Shown here piece after piece: positions 6,582-19,729 of a stretch of DNA of 64,000 bases; position 1 is the stretch's first letter, and the number at the start of each line of letters is the position of its first letter. This stretch comes from a virus, in the IMG/VR virus record IMGVR_UViG_3300047388_000429, positions 6,426 through 70,425 of that record. One strand, given 5' to 3'. Made by a program: the position numbers and the translations under genes. Below the pieces are notes generated by a model. That model searched no databases and was not told where the DNA came from. It saw only the letters and a list, made by a program, of their open reading frames with translations.

Positions 6582-6760
6582 TCGACGTCGACAACTGGCA
6601 TTGGCCCCAATGGGGATGGGTGATCGGGGATTTTACAGTCCTTGTACTCTACGCCTTTGTCCACGGCAGAAAAATCAAGGAAAGATATAATTTCTTTGGG
6701 CGACTCGCGACCGTTGGAATGAATATTTATATTCTTGTACAGGGAGGATTTTTTAAATGA
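6578..6760 (+). CDS. Small membrane protein
   Basis: ATGA overlaps at both ends. Confidence 0.55.
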   Translation: MIDVDNWHWPQWGWVIGDFTVLVLYAFVHGRKIKERYNFFGRLATVGMNIYILVQGGFFK

Positions 6761-7968
6761 AGTATATCCATGAAGGCACGAAACACCCGATAAAGGCTTG
6801 GGTCGATCACGTTCCGATCGAGGACGTGGCATTGCAGCAGCTTAAGAACATCGCTGATCTCCCCTTCATTTACAAACACGTCGCGGTGATGCCGGACGTC
6901 CACTGGGGCATGGGAGCCACGGTCGGGAGCGTTATCGCCACGAAGGGCGCGATCTGTCCAGCCGCCGTCGGGGTGGATATCGGTTGCGGGATGATGGCCG
7001 TTAAGACGACGCTCACGGCTTCGCAGTTGCCGGAGAACCTGCAGGCGATCCGAAGCGAGATCGAGAAGGCGGTCCCGCACGGGAGGACCAACAACGGGGG
7101 AACCGGTGATCGCGGGGCCTGGCATGATATTCCGGATGAAGCAGCTGAAATCTGGGCGAATCAATTCGCTGATCGCTATGACCAGATCGTTGAAGGCCAC
7201 CAGAAGGCCCGCGCATATAATTCAGTCAATCATCTGGGTACCCTCGGAAGCGGCAATCACTTCATAGAATTATGCTTGGATACCGAACAGAACGTGTGGA
7301 TCATGCTTCACAGCGGCAGCCGCGGGCTCGGGAACAAGATCGGCATGTATTTCATCGAGCGCGCGCAGAATGAATGTGAGAAGTATTTTATCAACCTGCC
7401 GGATAAGGATCTGGCTTATCTTGTCGACGACACTCCGCTGTTCAGAGACTATGTTCTGGCCGTCGAAATGGCGCAGGAATTCGCGTATGCCAATCGTGGC
7501 CTGATGATGAAGAACGTGCTGGCGGCGATCCGCAAGCACATTCCGAACCTCAGGGTCACCGATATGGCGGTCAACTGTCACCACAACTATATTGCAAGGG
7601 AGGCCCATTTTGGACAAAACGTCATCGTCACCAGAAAGGGAGCTGTACGAGCGCGTGCGACAGACCTTGGAATCATTCCAGGCTCCATGGGGGCTAAGTC
7701 CTTCATCGTCCGCGGAAAGGGAAATGTTGATTCGTTCTGTTCATGCAGCCATGGTGCCGGTCGCGTGATGTCCCGCGGGCAGGCAAAGAAGCTGATTAGC
7801 ATGGAGGACCATATTCGCGATACCGCTGGCGTCGAATGTCGGAAGGACGCTGATGTCATCGACGAGAGCCCGAAGGCTTATAAGGATATTGAAAAAGTAA
7901 TGCTTTCGCAGGCTGATTTGGTTGAAATAGTATATGAACTCAAGCAGATCCTTTGCATTAAGGGGTAA
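6757..7968 (+). CDS. rtcB: RtcB RNA ligase
   Basis: MPDVH, VGVDIGCG, GTLGSGNHFIE, HSGSRG, HHNY, RKGA, PGSMG, SHGAGR motifs. Confidence 0.96.
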   Translation: MKYIHEGTKHPIKAWVDHVPIEDVALQQLKNIADLPFIYKHVAVMPDVHWGMGATVGSVIATKGAICPAAVGVDIGCGMMAVKTTLTASQLPENLQAIRSEIEKAVPHGRTNNGGTGDRGAWHDIPDEAAEIWANQFADRYDQIVEGHQKARAYNSVNHLGTLGSGNHFIELCLDTEQNVWIMLHSGSRGLGNKIGMYFIERAQNECEKYFINLPDKDLAYLVDDTPLFRDYVLAVEMAQEFAYANRGLMMKNVLAAIRKHIPNLRVTDMAVNCHHNYIAREAHFGQNVIVTRKGAVRARATDLGIIPGSMGAKSFIVRGKGNVDSFCSCSHGAGRVMSRGQAKKLISMEDHIRDTAGVECRKDADVIDESPKAYKDIEKVMLSQADLVEIVYELKQILCIKG

Positions 7969-15075: not shown

Positions 15076-15477
15076 CTACGCTGCTGCGGAGGCAGACGCT
15101 GTATCTGTGCCATTGCCGTTTTGATCTCCCGCTGGACTGGCTACCACCGGAGGCGCTGATACCGCTACCTGAATAGCGGAAAGAACTCCGTTCGTTACCG
15201 CCTGTGCGATTACATTGGCGTCCTGATCAGTGATATCGATATTCAGAGACAGCGCCTGCGCCTTGATAAGCACGGCCGCCGATTGAATGGCCGCCTGCGG
15301 CTGTTGTCCGCCAGCGATGGTCGCGAGCGCCAACGTCGTCGGCTCAGTGAGATCAAGGGCGGAAAATTTGGTGACCAGGCCATTGAGCATCTCAATGTTG
15401 GCCTGCAGCAACGTATAAAGAGACGGGGCCGGTGCCTTGAAGAGCGGGATGACTTTATCGACTAAAGCAGTGGACAT
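15076..15477 (-). CDS. Hypothetical protein
   Basis: AAGGAAG RBS, 133 aa. Confidence 0.6.
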   Translation of the reverse strand: MSTALVDKVIPLFKAPAPSLYTLLQANIEMLNGLVTKFSALDLTEPTTLALATIAGGQQPQAAIQSAAVLIKAQALSLNIDITDQDANVIAQAVTNGVLSAIQVAVSAPPVVASPAGDQNGNGTDTASASAAA

Positions 15478-15559
15478 ATTACTTCCTTTCAGATTTTGAA
15501 TCCGCGGGGATGCGGTAAAAGAATCATGGCAGATATTTTTTTATTGCACAATCGAAAAG

Positions 15560-15633
15560 TGGTTCTGGGGGCACGGATCGAACGTGCATTACCTGATTCA
15601 AAGTCAGGGGGCCTACCATTAGCCGACCCCAGA
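15560..15633 (-). tRNA. tRNA-Gln(UUG)
   Basis: CCTGA-CT TTG AA-TCAGG arm, TTCGA T-loop, CCA. Confidence 0.92.
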
Positions 15634-15638
15634 AAAAG

Positions 15639-15711
15639 TGGGTTGTGCGCGGGATTTGAACCCGATACGCCGAGTCACAATCGGCTGCTTTGCCGTTAAG
15701 CTACGCACAAA
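15639..15711 (-). tRNA. tRNA-His(GUG), 4-bp T-stem
   Basis: GCCGA-TT GTG AC-TCGGC; C73-CCA. Confidence 0.85.
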
Positions 15712-15713
15712 CT

Positions 15714-15787
15714 TGGCAGAGGGCCTGTGAATCGAACACAGATTAGCCGTTTTGGAGGCGGCGAGCTTGCCATTAGCAGAGCCCTCT
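15714..15787 (-). tRNA. tRNA-Trp(CCA)
   Basis: GCCGC-CT CCA AA-ACGGC; G73-CCA. Confidence 0.88.
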
Positions 15788-15801
15788 AAATTGGTCGGCG
15801 A

Positions 15802-16209
15802 TCACTTGCCGTGTTTTAAATATTTCTCCCGTCGTACTCTCTGTTGTTTTTCCTTAGTCCATGTACTCCACTCATCTCTACGCCTTCCCGAGCGGGCAGC
15901 GTCCCTTTCTCCCTTAGACGCATAGAGTTGATTAGGCTTCGAAGCCGCAGAACAGTTGCAACTCAAATGCGAGAACGCGATGTTTTCTAGGTCAAAGAAA
16001 GATGCCAAAGGATCAGCCGCTCCCATCCATGCCTCCTTGTGCTCGATGGACATATCCGACGAAGATATGATCTCATTTTGACACCTGAAACACTTGTTAA
16101 GGCCAGCTTTACACACTAGTGAGAAAAGAACATTCTTTCTCAGTTTATGTGTGGCAGTACCTATGGGCATCCCGAGTAAGGACGCTTTCTTGTCGTTATG
16201 TTTGCTCAT
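15802..16209 (-). CDS. HNH-like endonuclease inserted at the 3' end of tRNA-Pro
   Basis: CFRC...SIEH...NIAFSHLSCN; GGAGG RBS. Confidence 0.75.
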   Translation of the reverse strand: MSKHNDKKASLLGMPIGTATHKLRKNVLFSLVCKAGLNKCFRCQNEIISSSDMSIEHKEAWMGAADPLASFFDLENIAFSHLSCNCSAASKPNQLYASKGERDAARSGRRRDEWSTWTKEKQQRVRREKYLKHGK

Positions 16210-16243
16210 CGTTTACCTCCGTATTTAATGTTGCAAACGAATG

Positions 16244-16319
16244 TCGGTACGGCAGGATTTGAACCTGCGATCCTCTGGTCCCAAGCCAGATGGGGACGGC
16301 CAGACTCCCCTACGTACCG
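16244..16319 (-). tRNA. tRNA-Pro(UGG), no encoded CCA
   Basis: TCTGG-CT TGG GA-CCAGA; C1:G72, A73. Confidence 0.9.
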
Positions 16320-16326
16320 TTTATTT

Positions 16327-16403
16327 TGGTGGGCCGCCTCGGACTTGAACCGAGAGAAAGCTTGTTCCTAAGACAAGTGCGTCTGCCATTCCGCCAGCAG
16401 CCC
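16327..16403 (-). tRNA. tRNA-Leu(UAG), short variable region
   Basis: CTTGT-CT TAG GA-ACAAG; Leu-type D arm; A73-CCA. Confidence 0.88.
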
Positions 16404-16404
16404 A

Positions 16405-16487
16405 TGGTGCGAGTAATCAGAATCGAACTGATACGCCGAAGCGAGCGATTTTAAGTCGCTTGCGTCTACCTATTCCGCCATACTCGC
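16405..16487 (-). tRNA. tRNA-Leu(UAA)
   Basis: AGCGA-CT TAA AA-TCGCT; variable arm; CCA. Confidence 0.92.
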
Positions 16488-16512
16488 TTATAAAATTCTC
16501 CTTTCGCGCAAT

Positions 16513-16544
16513 AAAAAAACCCCGCCTTGTTTAGGGGCGGGGTT
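16513..16544 (-). terminator. Attenuator terminator 3 (upstream of the Leu-Leu-Pro-Trp-His-Gln block)
   Basis: AACCCCGCC-CCTAAACAA-GGCGGGG followed by TTTTTTT. Confidence 0.88.
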
Positions 16545-16570
16545 CAGAGCTTTCGCACTCTTACCGTATA

Positions 16571-16642
16571 TTACCGCCCAAGCATAAAGGCTCCCAGTGG
16601 GAGTTGCTGTAAATGCCAGGGCTGTAACAAATTCTTTTTCAT
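16571..16642 (-). CDS. Leader peptide 3, MKKNLLQPWHLQQLPLGAFMLGR
   Basis: Codons 5-16 are only L/Q/P/W/H, matching the downstream tRNAs; stop 26 nt before the terminator. Confidence 0.85.
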   Translation of the reverse strand: MKKNLLQPWHLQQLPLGAFMLGR

Positions 16643-16648
16643 TGTTTT

Positions 16649-16677
16649 ACAATATGATGATTCTTTGAGAATTGCAA
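16649..16677 (-). promoter_or_regulatory. Sigma70-like promoter giving a leaderless leader-3 transcript
   Basis: TTGCAA-17 nt-TATTGT-6 nt-ATG. Confidence 0.7.
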
Positions 16678-16683
16678 GAGAAA

Positions 16684-16759
16684 TGGTCCGTCCAGAGAGA
16701 CTCGAACTCCCAGCCTGAAACTTAGAAGGTTCCTGCTCTTCCAATTGAGCTATGGACGG
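16684..16759 (-). tRNA. tRNA-Arg(UCU)
   Basis: GGAAC-CT TCT AA-GTTTC; CCA. Confidence 0.92.
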
Positions 16760-16760
16760 A

Positions 16761-16849
16761 TGGTGCATGGGGATGGATTTGAACCACCGATGTTAACCCA
16801 AAGGGACCTGATCTACAGTCAGGCGCATTCGCCGCTCTGCCACCCATGC
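16761..16849 (-). tRNA. tRNA-Tyr(GUA)
   Basis: CCTGA-CT GTA GA-TCAGG; long variable arm; CCA. Confidence 0.92.
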
Positions 16850-16858
16850 GTTATCTTT

Positions 16859-16947
16859 TGGCGGATGCTGAAGGGGTCGAACCTTCGTGAGCCAGCGAGG
16901 CTCCGCAGTTTAGCAAACTGCTCGTTTTACCATTCACGCAAGCATCC
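16859..16947 (-). tRNA. tRNA-Ser(GCU)
   Basis: GCAGT-TT GCT AA-ACTGC; long variable arm; G73. Confidence 0.92.
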
Positions 16948-16955
16948 AGAAAAAT

Positions 16956-17043
16956 TGGCGGAGGGTAAAGGAGTCGAACCATCAGCGCATTCAAGGCTGG
17001 CGACAGTTTTCAAGACTGTTTGTCCCCGCGGACGCTACCCTCC
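16956..17043 (-). tRNA. tRNA-Ser(UGA), probable 8/4 fold
   Basis: ACAGT-CT TGA AA-ACTGT; acceptor GGAGGGTA/TACCCTCC (8 bp). Confidence 0.85.
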
Positions 17044-17117
17044 GGACTCACGAACCGGACTCGAACCGGCATAAGCGATTTTGCAGACCGCTGCATAACC
17101 TTTCTGACCACCGCGAG
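17044..17117 (-). tRNA. tRNA-Cys(GCA)
   Basis: GCGGT-CT GCA AA-ATCGC; U73; ends in CC and abuts G1 of tRNA-Ser. Confidence 0.85.
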
Positions 17118-17123
17118 AGAAAT

Positions 17124-17205
17124 TGGCACGCCCGACAGGAGTTGAACCTGCATCTTCCATCCGATTACCTTTGTCGGCGTTCGTAGCACCGAGGGTTACG
17201 GGCGT
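17124..17205 (-). tRNA. Rearranged tRNA-Arg(ACG) lacking a conventional D arm
   Basis: Acceptor ACGCCCG/CGGGCGT-G-CCA and canonical T arm; anticodon arm CGGTG-CT ACG AA-CGCCG comes right after the acceptor 5' strand. Confidence 0.7.
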
Positions 17206-17206
17206 A

Positions 17207-17282
17207 TGGTACGACGAACCGGAGTCGAACCGGCACCCTGCGGGTCCGGAACCCACCGCTCTTCCAGTTGAGCTTCCGTCGT
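17207..17282 (-). tRNA. tRNA-Arg(CCG)
   Basis: GTGGG-TT CCG GA-CCCGC; CCA. Confidence 0.9.
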
Positions 17283-17286
17283 AAAT

Positions 17287-17361
17287 TGGCGATCCTTGGG
17301 GGTGCTGCCCCCCCGACCTCCGCCGTGACAAGGCGGCGCTCTGCCGTTGAGCTAAAGGACC
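17287..17361 (-). tRNA. tRNA-Asp(GUC) with atypical T-loop
   Basis: CCGCC-TT GTC AC-GGCGG; T-loop GGCAGCA; G73. Confidence 0.85.
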
Positions 17362-17367
17362 ATGAAT

Positions 17368-17454
17368 TGGTGCCAGCCACAGGATTCGAACCTGCGATGA
17401 TCTTGCGATGACGGTTTACAAAACCGTTGCCTTCAACCACTCGGCAAAGCTGGC
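17368..17454 (-). tRNA. tRNA-Thr(UGU) with long variable arm
   Basis: ACGGT-TT TGT AA-ACCGT; G1:C72, C2:G71. Confidence 0.82.
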
Positions 17455-17789
17455 AATTTTATTATTCCAGCGTGAACTTTACGATGACAATTAGAGCAAA
17501 GAACAACGCACTTCTTTAATTCTTTTTCAACTTTTTTAAGAGAATGATTTGTAAAATTACTGATATTTATATTCATATCTTTTTTCTTTGGATCTAGATG
17601 ATGGAAGTCCAAACAATAAGGTTCTTTCTCTCCGCAAACCTTACATTTAAGTTTTTTCTTCATCTCTCTAAATTCTAACCGTCGTCTTTTTCTCCACGCA
17701 TTATTCAATTCCATGCGACGTTTTTTATTACGTGGATACCAGATTTCCCGATGGTATTTGGCGATTTCGCCTTTTGTTTTGTAACTCAT
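17433..17789 (-). CDS. HNH endonuclease within the tRNA array
   Basis: CKVCG...LDFHH...CVVLCSNCHRKVH; stop lies inside the tRNA-Thr D-loop. Confidence 0.8.
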   Translation of the reverse strand: MSYKTKGEIAKYHREIWYPRNKKRRMELNNAWRKRRRLEFREMKKKLKCKVCGEKEPYCLDFHHLDPKKKDMNINISNFTNHSLKKVEKELKKCVVLCSNCHRKVHAGIIKLPALPSG

Positions 17790-17818
17790 AAAAACACTAT
17801 ATAGCATGTTACAAAAAT

Positions 17819-17897
17819 TGGTAGCAGAGATCGGATTCGAACCGATGATAACAGCGTTATGAGCACCGTGCTTTGGGCCAGACTAAGCTACTCTGCG
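17819..17897 (-). tRNA. tRNA-Met(CAU), elongator-like (Ile2 not excluded)
   Basis: CGGTG-CT CAT AA-CGCTG; G2:C71, C3:G70; C11:G24; C1xU72 mismatch. Confidence 0.82.
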
Positions 17898-17903
17898 TCA
17901 ATT

Positions 17904-17978
17904 TGGTGCGCTGGCAGGGAGTTGAACCCTGTCCTCAAGCTTGGAAGGCTCGCATGCACCCACCAACAACTCCAGCGC
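17904..17978 (-). tRNA. tRNA-Gly(UCC)
   Basis: CGAGC-CT TCC AA-GCTTG; weak D stem; A73. Confidence 0.82.
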
Positions 17979-17985
17979 ATTATCT

Positions 17986-18060
17986 TGGCGGGGAACTGTG
18001 GAATTGAACCACATACGCGCGGACCTTCAAACCGCCGCTCTACCGATGAGCTAGATCCCC
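17986..18060 (-). tRNA. tRNA-Phe(GAA)
   Basis: GCGGT-TT GAA GG-TCCGC (U31xU39); G73. Confidence 0.82.
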
Positions 18061-18126
18061 AAAGTTAAACACGCGGCCGTGTGAGTTTCGGCTCTTACAC
18101 CATCGTGGCAGACGGGTTGCGTGAAT

Positions 18127-18202
18127 TGGCTCCCGAGAGTGGACTCGAACCACTGACAACTTGATTAACAGTCAAGGACTCTACCAACTGAGCTACTCGG
18201 AA
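18127..18202 (-). tRNA. tRNA-Asn(GUU)
   Basis: CTTGA-CT GTT AA-TCAAG; G73-CCA. Confidence 0.93.
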
Positions 18203-18213
18203 TAATTTTTATT

Positions 18214-18299
18214 TGGCCGGCGGGGCAGGACTTGAACCTGCGACCTCTTCATCCAGTGCGCATGGCATGAAGCGCTCTAACCAACTGAGCTACCCGCCG
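18214..18299 (-). tRNA. tRNA-like RNA with elongated anticodon arm, identity undetermined
   Basis: Canonical acceptor, D and T arms and CCA, but 16 nt (TGCCATGCGCACTGGA) replace the 7-nt anticodon loop. Confidence 0.75.
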
Positions 18300-18331
18300 A
18301 AAAATCATCATATCAACAATGTTCAATAACC

Positions 18332-18366
18332 AAAACAAAAACCCCGCTTCTTTTAGGAGCGGGGCT
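18332..18366 (-). terminator. Attenuator terminator 2 (upstream of the 14-gene tRNA block)
   Basis: AGCCCCGCTCCT-AAA-AGAAGCGGGG followed by TTTTTGTTTT. Confidence 0.85.
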
Positions 18367-18393
18367 TTGTGTTTTTAACAGGGAGAAAAAGAT

Positions 18394-18468
18394 TTACACA
18401 AATAGCCCCTCGCCGCTTCTTCCGAAGCCGCGGTCATAGGACATATTTGATGTGCATATCGTTTTCAT
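18394..18468 (-). CDS. Leader peptide 2, MKTICTSNMSYDRGFGRSGEGLFV
   Basis: Codons 5-19 use only C/T/S/N/M/Y/D/R/G/F, which are all ten amino acids of the downstream block. Confidence 0.85.
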   Translation of the reverse strand: MKTICTSNMSYDRGFGRSGEGLFV

Positions 18469-18474
18469 TCTTTC

Positions 18475-18503
18475 AGTATCTATCAGATTCGCTAAAAAGT
18501 CAA
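18475..18503 (-). promoter_or_regulatory. Sigma70-like promoter giving a leaderless leader-2 transcript
   Basis: TTGACT-17 nt-GATACT-6 nt-ATG. Confidence 0.7.
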
Positions 18504-18504
18504 A

Positions 18505-18578
18505 TGGTACTCGGTGAAGGAATCGAACCATCGTCAACTGCATGTAAGGCAGCCACTCTCCCATTGAGCTAACCGAGC
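18505..18578 (-). tRNA. tRNA-Val(UAC)
   Basis: GCTGC-CT TAC AT-GCAGT; CCA. Confidence 0.9.
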
Positions 18579-18628
18579 ACATCCGGCGCAGCGATTGTTT
18601 GGGCCATGACAGTCGCTGCGCCGAAACT

Positions 18629-18705
18629 TGGTGGACCCTGCGAGAATCGAACTCGCCTCAGTCTGCTTGCAAAGCAGTCTCGCCCCCCTTGGTACATGAG
18701 AGCCC
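18629..18705 (-). tRNA. tRNA-Ala(UGC)
   Basis: CTGC-TT TGC AA-GCAG; G3:U70; atypical D arm. Confidence 0.85.
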
Positions 18706-18712
18706 ACATATT

Positions 18713-18787
18713 TGGTCGGTGCGATGGGAATTGAACCCATTTTATACGCCTTAAAAGGGCGCTGCCTGACCGGCCGGCTCCGCACCG
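18713..18787 (-). tRNA. tRNA-Lys(UUU)
   Basis: GCGCC-CT TTT AA-GGCGT; CCA. Confidence 0.88.
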
Positions 18788-18791
18788 TAAT

Positions 18792-18866
18792 TGGTTGAGG
18801 CGAAGGGAATCGAACCCCACGTCTAACGGTTATCAACCGCTTGCACTGCCATTGTGCTACACCTCA
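18792..18866 (-). tRNA. tRNA-Ile(GAU)
   Basis: AGCGG-TT GAT AA-CCGTT; CCA. Confidence 0.9.
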
Positions 18867-18890
18867 GAAATCTGTTTCCTCCCGCATAAT

Positions 18891-18916
18891 AAAAAACCCG
18901 CCTTTGTGGGGCGGGT
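18891..18916 (-). terminator. Attenuator terminator 1 (upstream of the Ile-Lys-Ala-Val block)
   Basis: ACCCGCC-CCACAAA-GGCGGG followed by TTTTTT. Confidence 0.85.
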
Positions 18917-18944
18917 GCAAAATTCAAGACGAATTTGACCAGCC

Positions 18945-18998
18945 CTATTTGTCGGGTTTAATCGCTTTCGCCACAATCTTTACAGTCTCTCGTCTCAT
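18945..18998 (-). CDS. Leader peptide 1, MRRETVKIVAKAIKPDK
   Basis: GAGGA RBS; codons 6-14 are only V/K/I/A, matching the downstream tRNAs; too short to appear in the ORF track. Confidence 0.85.
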   Translation of the reverse strand: MRRETVKIVAKAIKPDK

Positions 18999-19016
18999 CT
19001 CGTTCTTCCTCTACTT

Positions 19017-19090
19017 TGGCGCGGCCAACGGGAATTGAACCCGTGTTGTCCGATTGAAAGTCGGCTTTCCTGCCGTTAGAAGATGGCCGC
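19017..19090 (-). tRNA. tRNA-Glu(UUC)
   Basis: CCGA-CT TTC AA-TCGG; G73-CCA. Confidence 0.9.
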
Positions 19091-19187
19091 TTAAAGTAGG
19101 CTAAGCCATCTGTATTTTTCAGGGGTTTGCTACGCTGGCCCCCTGCGGCCTCTGTACGTCCCAAACCGTTAAGTGAGGGACCAAAAT

Positions 19188-19262
19188 TGGTTGCGAAGCT
19201 TGGAATTGAACCAAGTACCTGCTGCTTATGAGGCAGCCGAGCTACCGATGCTCTACTCCGCG
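19188..19262 (-). tRNA. Initiator-like tRNA-fMet(CAU)
   Basis: C1xA72, A11:U24, CAT anticodon; anticodon stem GCTGC/GCAGC. Confidence 0.85.
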
Positions 19263-19268
19263 ATTTTC

Positions 19269-19297
19269 ACTTTATAGGAGTTGTAATTTTATTTCAA
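19269..19297 (-). promoter_or_regulatory. Sigma70-like promoter at the head of the tRNA array
   Basis: TTGAAA-17 nt-TAAAGT, 6 nt before tRNA-fMet. Confidence 0.7.
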
Positions 19298-19306
19298 GAG
19301 AAAAGT

Positions 19307-19729
19307 TTAGGCGAGCACGCGCGCGGCCGCGGCCTCGAAAACCGCCTCTTCATACCAGAACGGCAACGCCGAATCGGGACACGTCCCTTGTTCATGAAGG
19401 ACAATCGCTTGTGTCAAGCGAATCAGGTTGTCGGGGACTTCGATATCAAAATAATCCGTTTGATCGACGCCGCAATGACGGCAAACATCAAGGACACAGA
19501 CAGCGGCCTTGTCCGGCGAGGAATAACGAGCAATAAAAGCCGCGATGTGCTCGAGGTCATCTTTTCGCTGAAAAGATAAAAGAGTTTTCATGAGCGCGGC
19601 GATTCCGCTGACGGGGCTATCAAAACGAATTAACCTTGGATCATCTTGCAGCGTGCTTTGGGCTACGCATGCTCTCCCATTGTGCTCGAGCTTGCCAGGA
19701 TTGTTGAGAATGATAGACCACGGTGTCAT
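19307..19729 (-). CDS. Putative lysozyme-like virion/lysis protein
   Basis: NNPG motif, F.SP..GI.A, AI..HEQG. Confidence 0.55.
   Translation of the reverse strand: MTPWSIILNNPGKLEHNGRACVAQSTLQDDPRLIRFDSPVSGIAALMKTLLSFQRKDDLEHIAAFIARYSSPDKAAVCVLDVCRHCGVDQTDYFDIEVPDNLIRLTQAIVLHEQGTCPDSALPFWYEEAVFEAAAARVLA

Follow-up and report, generated by a model that had tools for sequence, protein, structure and literature searches.

A likely leader-peptide attenuator gating four tRNA genes within the tRNA array of a myovirus-like phage

The leader-peptide attenuators of enterobacteria, among them those of his, trp and ilv, respond to the level of charged tRNA whatever lowers it, and some are multivalent: the leader of the ilvGMEDA operon, ilvL, answers to Leu/Val/Ile and the thr leader, thrL, to Thr/Ile. 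Attenuation also governs a component of the translation machinery in the phenylalanyl-tRNA synthetase operon (pheST), where the leader pheM senses the cognate charged tRNA. T-box RNAs recognise uncharged tRNA themselves, by means of a specifier codon and the T-box sequence; no ribosome takes part. Here we describe leader 1, a spacer element in the tRNA array of a soil phage that is myovirus-like (tail sheath, baseplate wedge, portal and large terminase are encoded). The sequence analysed, hereafter the window, is a 64,000-nucleotide stretch (bases 6426-70425) of the 70,425-bp IMG/VR virus record IMGVR_UViG_3300047388_000429, which has direct terminal repeats. We consider it likely that leader 1 belongs to the trp/ilv type of ribosome-mediated (leader-peptide) transcription attenuators and gates four tRNA genes, and the phage would then probably make these four tRNAs only when ribosomes run short of them.

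Leader 1 has in common with the ilvL, thrL, trp and his leaders a short open reading frame (ORF) led by a Shine-Dalgarno (SD) sequence, a cluster of codons for several amino acids, mutually exclusive 1:2, 2:3 and 3:4 pairings, a stop codon that adjoins segment 2 and an intrinsic terminator ahead of the regulated genes. It differs from the enterobacterial attenuators in that the genes it would regulate are phage tRNAs, not biosynthesis or synthetase genes, and in that it lies inside a tRNA transcript, behind tRNA-Glu. No Rfam leader family matched positions 18867-19016 at E<=1, and there is no sequence relation to the enterobacterial leaders; sub-threshold matches to Thr_leader (minus strand, 22.0 bits; plus strand, 23.9 bits; cut-off, 55) fell on leader 2 only, a further leader-like spacer of the same array. 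In pheST a synthetase is regulated and one amino acid is sensed, whereas the tRNAs would themselves be the product of leader 1 control and four species would be sensed. What the T-box shares with leader 1 is a terminator/antiterminator switch answering the state of one tRNA; leader 1, unlike the T-box, has a conserved SD and ORF. We rejected a T-box or other known RNA family as an identification of the element, as the T-box model of Rfam gave nothing at E<=1 across 15400-19400.

Among published systems, the trn operon of Anabaena sp. PCC 7120 comes closest: it is an accessory tRNA array that, in the portions of the report drawn on here, is not expressed until translation is compromised and shares its regulation with rtcB (PMC8421152). 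The corresponding portions of two reports (PMC8421152; PMC10272220) assign control of this operon to its promoter, where direct repeats and the repressor TrcR act, and the main text of the former contains 'attenuat', 'leader peptide' and 'terminator' 0 times each. As far as these portions go, rtcB is present in both systems, but the Anabaena array is repressor-controlled and leader 1 of the phage is attenuator-like. We found no published attenuation or leader-peptide control of tRNA genes in the literature searched.

Leader 1 occupies the 150-nt spacer from tRNA-Glu to tRNA-Ile on the minus strand, and the block of genes that it is predicted to gate spans 18505..18866 on the same strand:

19090-19017, minus strand: tRNA-Glu(TTC), called by ARAGORN and matched by the Rfam tRNA model at 57.4 bits
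19011-19007, minus strand: SD sequence GAGGA, 8 nt ahead of the ATG
18998-18945, minus strand: leader ORF MRRETVKIVAKAIKPDK, with ATG at 18998, 17 codons and TAG at 18947-18945
18983-18957, minus strand: candidate regulatory codons 6-14 (V K I V A K A I K), GTA AAG ATT GTG GCG AAA GCG ATT AAA
18866-18792, minus strand: tRNA-Ile(GAT), first gene of the putatively gated block, called by ARAGORN with an Rfam match
18787-18713, minus strand: tRNA-Lys(TTT), second gene of the block, called by ARAGORN with an Rfam match
18705-18629, minus strand: tRNA-Ala(TGC), third gene of the block, called by ARAGORN only (no Rfam match at E<=1), with G3:U70 read by eye
18578-18505, minus strand: tRNA-Val(TAC), fourth gene of the block, called by ARAGORN with an Rfam match

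A first-pass annotation of this DNA, made from the letters alone, had proposed that codons 6-14 are all readable by the four downstream anticodons. This holds with the ARAGORN anticodons GAU, UUU, UGC and UAC under strict wobble, the strict set being the 8 codons that those four anticodons read by Watson-Crick or standard wobble pairing under the established wobble rules. The SD sequence GAGGA and the position behind tRNA-Glu that it had pointed out were confirmed on the minus strand. Across the six frames of the 64-kb window, a run of at least 9 strict-set codons occurs once, against 0.0021 expected and a next longest run of 6, although this statistic was calculated post hoc, with the pattern already seen, which lessens its weight for an attenuator. 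At codons 7-10 (AAG ATT GTG GCG) every one of the four tRNAs meets the codon that it decodes by wobble. Over 17 long ORFs of the phage, ATC is favoured for Ile (62% of its codons) and GTC for Val (46%); leader 1 does without both and uses ATT, GTG/GTA and GCG, which GAU, UAC and UGC can read. The codon choice of the leader tracks the downstream anticodons, not the phage's preference.

Two relatives carry the same element. One (G001) is a 67-kb IMG/VR contig, with a portal 74% identical to that of the window, in which tRNA-Met and tRNA-Glu are followed by the leader, the terminator, tRNA-Ile, tRNA-Lys, an Ala-like gene missed by ARAGORN and tRNA-Val; its leader, MLRETNKIVAKAIKPIK, has the same length, ATG and TAG. 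The other (L014) is an 11-kb IMG/VR contig with tRNA-Glu, the leader MRRETNKIVAKAIKPDR (again of the same length, with ATG and TAG), the terminator, tRNA-Ile, tRNA-Lys and a different ORF before the contig end. The SD, ATG, 17 codons, TAG, hairpins and terminator are kept in 3/3 sequences. The RNA of the window leader can adopt the following pairings, numbered as in the trp attenuator:

18954..18980, minus strand: segment 1, the 5' strand of a 1:2 anti-antiterminator, AAGAUU..GGCGAA..GAUUA..CCC, overlapping the candidate regulatory codons
18928..18945, minus strand: segment 2, GGGCUGGUCAAAUUCGUC, whose first base is the G of the stop codon and whose partner is segment 1 or segment 3
18945-18909, minus strand: inner hairpin (2:3) of the antiterminator, GGGCTGGTCAAATTC / GAATTTTGCACCCGCCC, which captures the terminator 5' arm ACCCGCC
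18894..18959, minus strand: outer helix of the antiterminator, AAACCCG (18959-18953, codons 14-16) with CGGGUUU (18900-18894)
18916-18891, minus strand: intrinsic terminator (3:4), ACCCGCC / CCACAAA / GGCGGGU and then U6, with a 7-bp GC-rich stem

The hairpin that had been predicted to overlap the stop codon and sequester ACCCGCC folds as described: the most favourable fold of the 73 nt surrounding the stop codon is the alternative to the terminator (-24.2 kcal/mol, z -3.26, 1/200 shuffles as good), and the fold of the whole 150-nt spacer is not unusually stable (z -1.06). The local terminator hairpin comes to -12.7 kcal/mol. Our analysis adds two structures to the earlier annotation, namely the outer antiterminator helix, which captures the terminator 3' arm and encloses the inner hairpin, and the 1:2 anti-antiterminator, in which GGCGAA..GAUUA..CCC pairs with GGG..UGGUC..UUCGUC and holds segment 2 in untranslated RNA. 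A promoter scan revealed no promoter-like site between the terminator and tRNA-Ile, so the four block tRNAs can only arise via read-through, which must then be regulated or at the least leaky, and an internal promoter for the block was ruled out on this ground. The T tract of the terminator is separated from tRNA-Ile by 24 bases in the window and directly adjoins tRNA-Ile in L014.

We computed masked partition-function folds for the three leaders, in which, from the 5' end, pairing was barred for all bases as far as 12 nt downstream of the first base in the A site. When the A site was placed at codons 7-10, the probability of the terminator, P(terminator), was <=0.012 in the window, <=0.31 in G001 and <=0.042 in L014. 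Placing the A site between roughly codon 12 and the stop favoured the terminator, at 0.77-0.99; with the ribosome at the stop codon itself P(terminator) was 0.88, 0.94 and 0.99 in the window, G001 and L014, which agrees with the earlier suggestion that a ribosome there permits termination. The free RNA gave 0.86, 0.89 and 0.97. Footprint-masked folding therefore gives at equilibrium a ribosome-position-dependent switch in 3/3 sequences, and 0/300 dinucleotide shuffles of each element, in which the terminator was fixed and all upstream sequence shuffled, scored as high on the switch as the native sequence. Applied to the thr attenuator of E. coli (thrL), the same test showed no equilibrium switch (P(terminator) ~0.99 throughout); because a proven attenuator fails it, the test is stringent and the passing of leader 1 is notable. 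Leader 1 differs from the thr leader in that its antiterminator wins at equilibrium in the stall-masked folds. The modelled folding follows the 1:2 / 2:3 / 3:4 logic of the trp type in all three sequences.

A leaky, constitutive terminator or insulator beside a small ORF that is conserved and not regulatory could serve simply to lower the dose of the four tRNAs or to end the Met-Glu transcript. The terminator is indeed strong and invariant, the alternative fold is without proof from covariation, and terminators are annotated inside other phage tRNA regions, for example in a T5-like record. Such an arrangement, however, leaves unexplained the unique 9-codon run that matches the next four anticodons, the block-specific make-up of the three leaders of the array (see below), the invariance of the wobble sites of codons 7-15 and the dependence of the fold on ribosome position (0/300 shuffles), and we regard it as unlikely.

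Pairwise identity of the leader core is 87-88% among the three sequences, against 52-74% for the neighbouring tRNA genes (Met, Glu, Ile, Lys, Ala and Val) when the window is compared with G001. The 27 bases of codons 7-15 do not differ in 3/3 sequences, third positions included, which leaves the peptide stretch KIVAKAIKP invariant, while residues 2, 6, 16 and 17 vary non-conservatively (R/L, V/N, D/I and K/R). Codon 6 is AAC (Asn) in both relatives, so the conserved run is that of codons 7-14 (8 codons). The earlier proposal of an attenuator gating tRNA-Ile, Lys, Ala and Val is borne out in 3/3 sequences as regards the structural predictions for a trp-type leader-peptide attenuator that sequence can address. 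Segment 2 begins with the G of TAG in 3/3 sequences and is invariant except for one C-to-U change that preserves a G-U pair; the terminator stem is likewise invariant, and its loop varies. Counted across the three sequences, pairing is retained in 96.3% of cells for segment 1:2 and the terminator jointly, in 90.5% for the inner hairpin 2:3 and in 94.7% for the outer helix. From the ATG to the terminator, variable columns are mostly unpaired (14/20, with 6/20 paired) and invariant columns mostly paired (58/83, with 25/83 unpaired; Fisher p 0.0017). We also considered a co-conversion tract of a homing endonuclease as the source of this conservation and rejected it, because the tRNAs that separate the leader from the nearest inserted ORF have diverged.

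Conservation of this kind could also be expected of a small protein gene, in which the 17-residue peptide is itself functional and the hairpin-terminator just ends its mRNA. The SD, ATG, length and stop are kept in 3/3 sequences, and KIVAKAIKP does not change. However, the third positions of codons 7-15 are invariant too, which argues for a constraint at the RNA or codon level; the non-conservative changes fall at residues 2, 6, 16 and 17 of the peptide; leaders 2 and 3 of the array keep their composition and not their sequence; and four conserved tRNA genes, lacking a promoter, would be shut off if the terminator did no more than end the mRNA. We therefore find a small protein gene very improbable. 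The nucleotide conservation above that of the flanking tRNAs, together with the bistable RNA, might instead point to an RNA element that acts without translation, whether a switch that senses tRNA in the manner of a T-box, a processing site for an RNase or a site for an antiterminator protein. Against such an element, no Rfam family, T-box included, matched 18867-19016 at E<=1 except a terminator-like anti-hemB match of 20 bits. The SD and ATG are kept despite a varying spacer (the SD is GGAG in G001 and GAGGA in L014, and the bases between SD and ATG differ), and the stop codon falls exactly at the first base of segment 2 in 3/3 sequences. An element independent of translation is, in our judgement, quite improbable.

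The attenuator reading of leader 1 gains context from two other spacers of the array, each with an ORF and a terminator ahead of a tRNA block:

18504-18300, minus strand: leader 2 spacer, with a promoter-like site, ORF MKTICTSNMSYDRGFGRSGEGLFV and a terminator, followed by tRNA-Asn, Phe, Gly, Met, Thr, Arg, Cys, Ser, Tyr and others
16683-16488, minus strand: leader 3 spacer, with ORF MKKNLLQPWHLQQLPLGAFMLGR and a terminator, followed by tRNA-Leu, Leu, Pro, Trp, His and Gln

Amino acids of the leader's own block account for 10/16, 18/23 and 13/22 residues of leaders 1, 2 and 3 in the window (3x3 chi-square p 2.9e-7), and for 10/16, 18/24 and 13/23 in G001 (p 3.9e-6). Leaders 2 and 3 of G001 have the same amino-acid set as those of the window in a changed residue order, which is what selection on composition, not on peptide sequence, would give. 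Directly after terminator 2, 19 nt (18313-18331, minus strand; GGTTATTGAACATTGTTGA) are identical in the window and G001, and the rest of that spacer is ~69% identical. SD-like motifs (GGAGGA / AAGGAGA) follow terminators 1 and 3, ahead of the first tRNA of the respective block, at 18869-18882 and 16495-16510, and are common to the window and G001. The first of these occupies the following position:

18869..18882, minus strand: SD-like GGAGGAAACAGATT between the terminator and tRNA-Ile, present in G001 and absent in L014

Leader 1 could work as an attenuator and yet report amino-acid starvation or general translation stress and not the supply of four tRNAs. Leader-peptide attenuators answer any drop in charged tRNA, as noted above for his, trp and ilv. 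The Anabaena tRNA array is likewise induced by general translational stress in the portions of that report drawn on here (PMC8421152). Extra tRNA, however, would not relieve amino-acid starvation, and each of the three blocks has its own matched leader; the splitting of the array into three blocks, with leaders matched to their own tRNAs, argues for species-specific sensing. A general stress signal thus appears to us rather doubtful.

The transcript that bears tRNA-Met, tRNA-Glu and leader 1 presumably starts at a promoter-like site immediately upstream of the first tRNA gene, and -35/-10 pairs similar to it were read by eye at the equivalent position in G001 and L014:

19269..19297, minus strand: promoter-like site P1, TTGAAA-17-TAAAGT, with 9/12 consensus matches, immediately upstream of the first tRNA-Met
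19262-19188, minus strand: tRNA-Met(CAT), called by ARAGORN and matched by the Rfam tRNA model at 57.4 bits

Both tRNA-Met and tRNA-Glu lie upstream of the attenuator and are consequently not gated by it. Anatomy, conservation and the bistable fold of leader 1 are computed; from them we infer that the leader ORF is translated, that its translation is coupled to polymerase and that tRNA supply is the signal, with tRNA or amino-acid limitation as the regulating condition. In the attenuator model, transcription from P1 would yield tRNA-Met and tRNA-Glu unconditionally and then enter the leader, where a ribosome would load at the SD immediately behind tRNA-Glu. A fast ribosome, from about codon 12 to the stop, would cover AAACCCG and the GGGCUGG of segment 2, so that 3:4 forms and polymerase halts before tRNA-Ile. 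Scarce charged tRNA-Lys(UUU), Ile(GAU), Val(UAC) or Ala(UGC) would stall the ribosome at codons 7-10, perhaps also at 11-14, leaving segment 2 and AAACCCG free to pair with both terminator arms and allowing read-through into tRNA-Ile, Lys, Ala and Val. The most effective stalls are predicted at codons 7-10, one each for Lys, Ile, Val and Ala. Untranslated RNA would form 1:2 plus 3:4 and terminate. Ample charged tRNAs would relieve the stall and turn the block off again, a negative feedback, and the shortage might be caused by cleavage or decay of host tRNA or by codon demand late in infection.

Several observations weigh against this model. The folds are equilibrium folds with an assumed footprint, and stalls at codons 11-14 are not predicted by them to antiterminate, with P(terminator) at 0.25-0.83 in the window, 0.85-0.93 in G001 and 0.55-0.97 in L014; antitermination from such stalls would require kinetic trapping of the 2:3 hairpin. 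The switch of G001 is less clean at codons 7-8 (P(terminator) ~0.3). Leaders 2 and 3 show no equilibrium switch, with flat P(terminator) in a crude masked test, although this result says little because the E. coli thr attenuator also fails. Of the 16 codons after the ATG of leader 1, 6 (R, R, E, T, P and D) are for amino acids outside the block. Two-sided pair changes number 0/21 in the antiterminator and 0/27 in the 1:2 hairpin and terminator, with one G-C to G-U change; in the absence of compensatory changes, the structures are supported by conservation and energy and not by covariation. The comparison comprises three full sequences from one narrow clade, and L014 is incomplete, with only tRNA-Ile and tRNA-Lys before the contig end. 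Distant portal relatives are without the array (G002, G003 and G005 have 0 tRNAs and G004 has 1). The lone contig from an RNA library, out of a sediment metatranscriptome, overlaps leader 1 just at 18919-19001, with 4 differences, and may come from a relative or from DNA carry-over. Finally, one T5-like phage record has no comparable leaders, and on that record we rejected the idea that the design is general to all tRNA-rich phages.

Searches for further copies returned few relatives. A portal search of IMG/VR gave 5 loci, with the array in G001 only. In the contigs of four public runs further copies were seen: besides the sediment contig named above, contigs from 3 soil DNA studies overlap leader 1 with few differences. 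Pattern scans of IMG/VR with the back-translated leader, the segment-2 17-mer and a leader-3 pattern retrieved G001, L014 and chance matches in coding regions (L002 and L015). The 11 stretches found in a metagenome pattern scan were all chance matches within coding sequence, and a scan of genome contigs gave 0 relatives of the flanking protein and 7 chance pattern matches. The gene upstream of the array has no IMG/VR relative; the 133-aa protein downstream has 4 relatives in the protein collection and, by alignment search in IMG/VR, a relative in G001 only. Searching 50,697 phage records by blastn produced only ~77% matches to single tRNAs.

ARAGORN called 23 tRNA genes in the array, all on the minus strand, from 19262 to 15560. 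Rfam saw a further tRNA at 17290-17361 that ARAGORN missed, and a match to the tRNA-Sec model (33.8 bits) with a Ser-UGA-like anticodon loop at 16960-17043. At 18214-18299 ARAGORN reported a 'tRNA-???' with an anticodon call of 2 bases, and an 89-nt spacer (17118-17206) has tRNA-like ends. Spacers around leader 1 vary in length: the tRNA-Met/tRNA-Glu spacer (19091-19187, minus strand) is 97 nt in the window versus 25 nt in G001, and the tRNA-Ala/tRNA-Val spacer (18579-18628, minus strand) is 50 nt in the window, with a 10-bp GC-rich hairpin (GGCGCAGCGA...TCGCTGCGCC) and no T tract, and merely a few bases in G001. Two ORFs lie within the array on the minus strand, one HNH-like at 17433-17807 (20.8 bits against a Pfam cut-off of 21.4) and one at 15802-16209 with no Pfam match. 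Other ORFs occur elsewhere in the arrays of G001 and L014 (L014 1-170), as expected of mobile endonuclease genes.

The role of phage tRNA genes has been debated for decades, between compensation for codon usage and escape from defences that cut tRNA, and to our knowledge their control is largely unknown. tRNA-Lys(UUU) is the classic target of anticodon nucleases. The phage encodes an intact RtcB RNA ligase (window 6757-7968, plus strand; Pfam PF01139, E 1.8e-129), whose presence alongside the array fits tRNA repair. It is possible, and we suggest it tentatively, that the array is an on-demand, block-wise counter-defence circuit in which each attenuator would turn on its own tRNA block specifically upon cutting or depletion of the tRNA species of that block by host enzymes, tRNA-Lys(UUU) for example, and RtcB would repair the cut tRNAs. 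Phage tRNAs have been discussed as an escape from tRNA-targeting defences (PMC10264068; PMC11555353; PMC12409363). In the portions drawn on here, such an escape would explain why a phage needs to replace tRNA-Lys and other tRNAs on demand, and the papers address the sequence and presence of the tRNAs, not inducible control.

If leader 1 acts as proposed, the phage gauges how fast particular codons are decoded and provides the tRNAs that are lacking only on demand. The textbook logic of trp and ilv would then be reused for a new gene class, which would explain how phages dose their tRNAs. Leader 1 is a compact, testable sensor of ~130 nt, for which depletion of any of the four tRNAs is predicted to induce the block, and it could serve as a living read-out of tRNA-targeting immunity. 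Should the counter-defence circuit also prove true, leader 1 would use the ribosome to detect attack on tRNA-Lys, Ile, Val and Ala, and would be part of a general, so far undescribed layer of phage tRNA biology.

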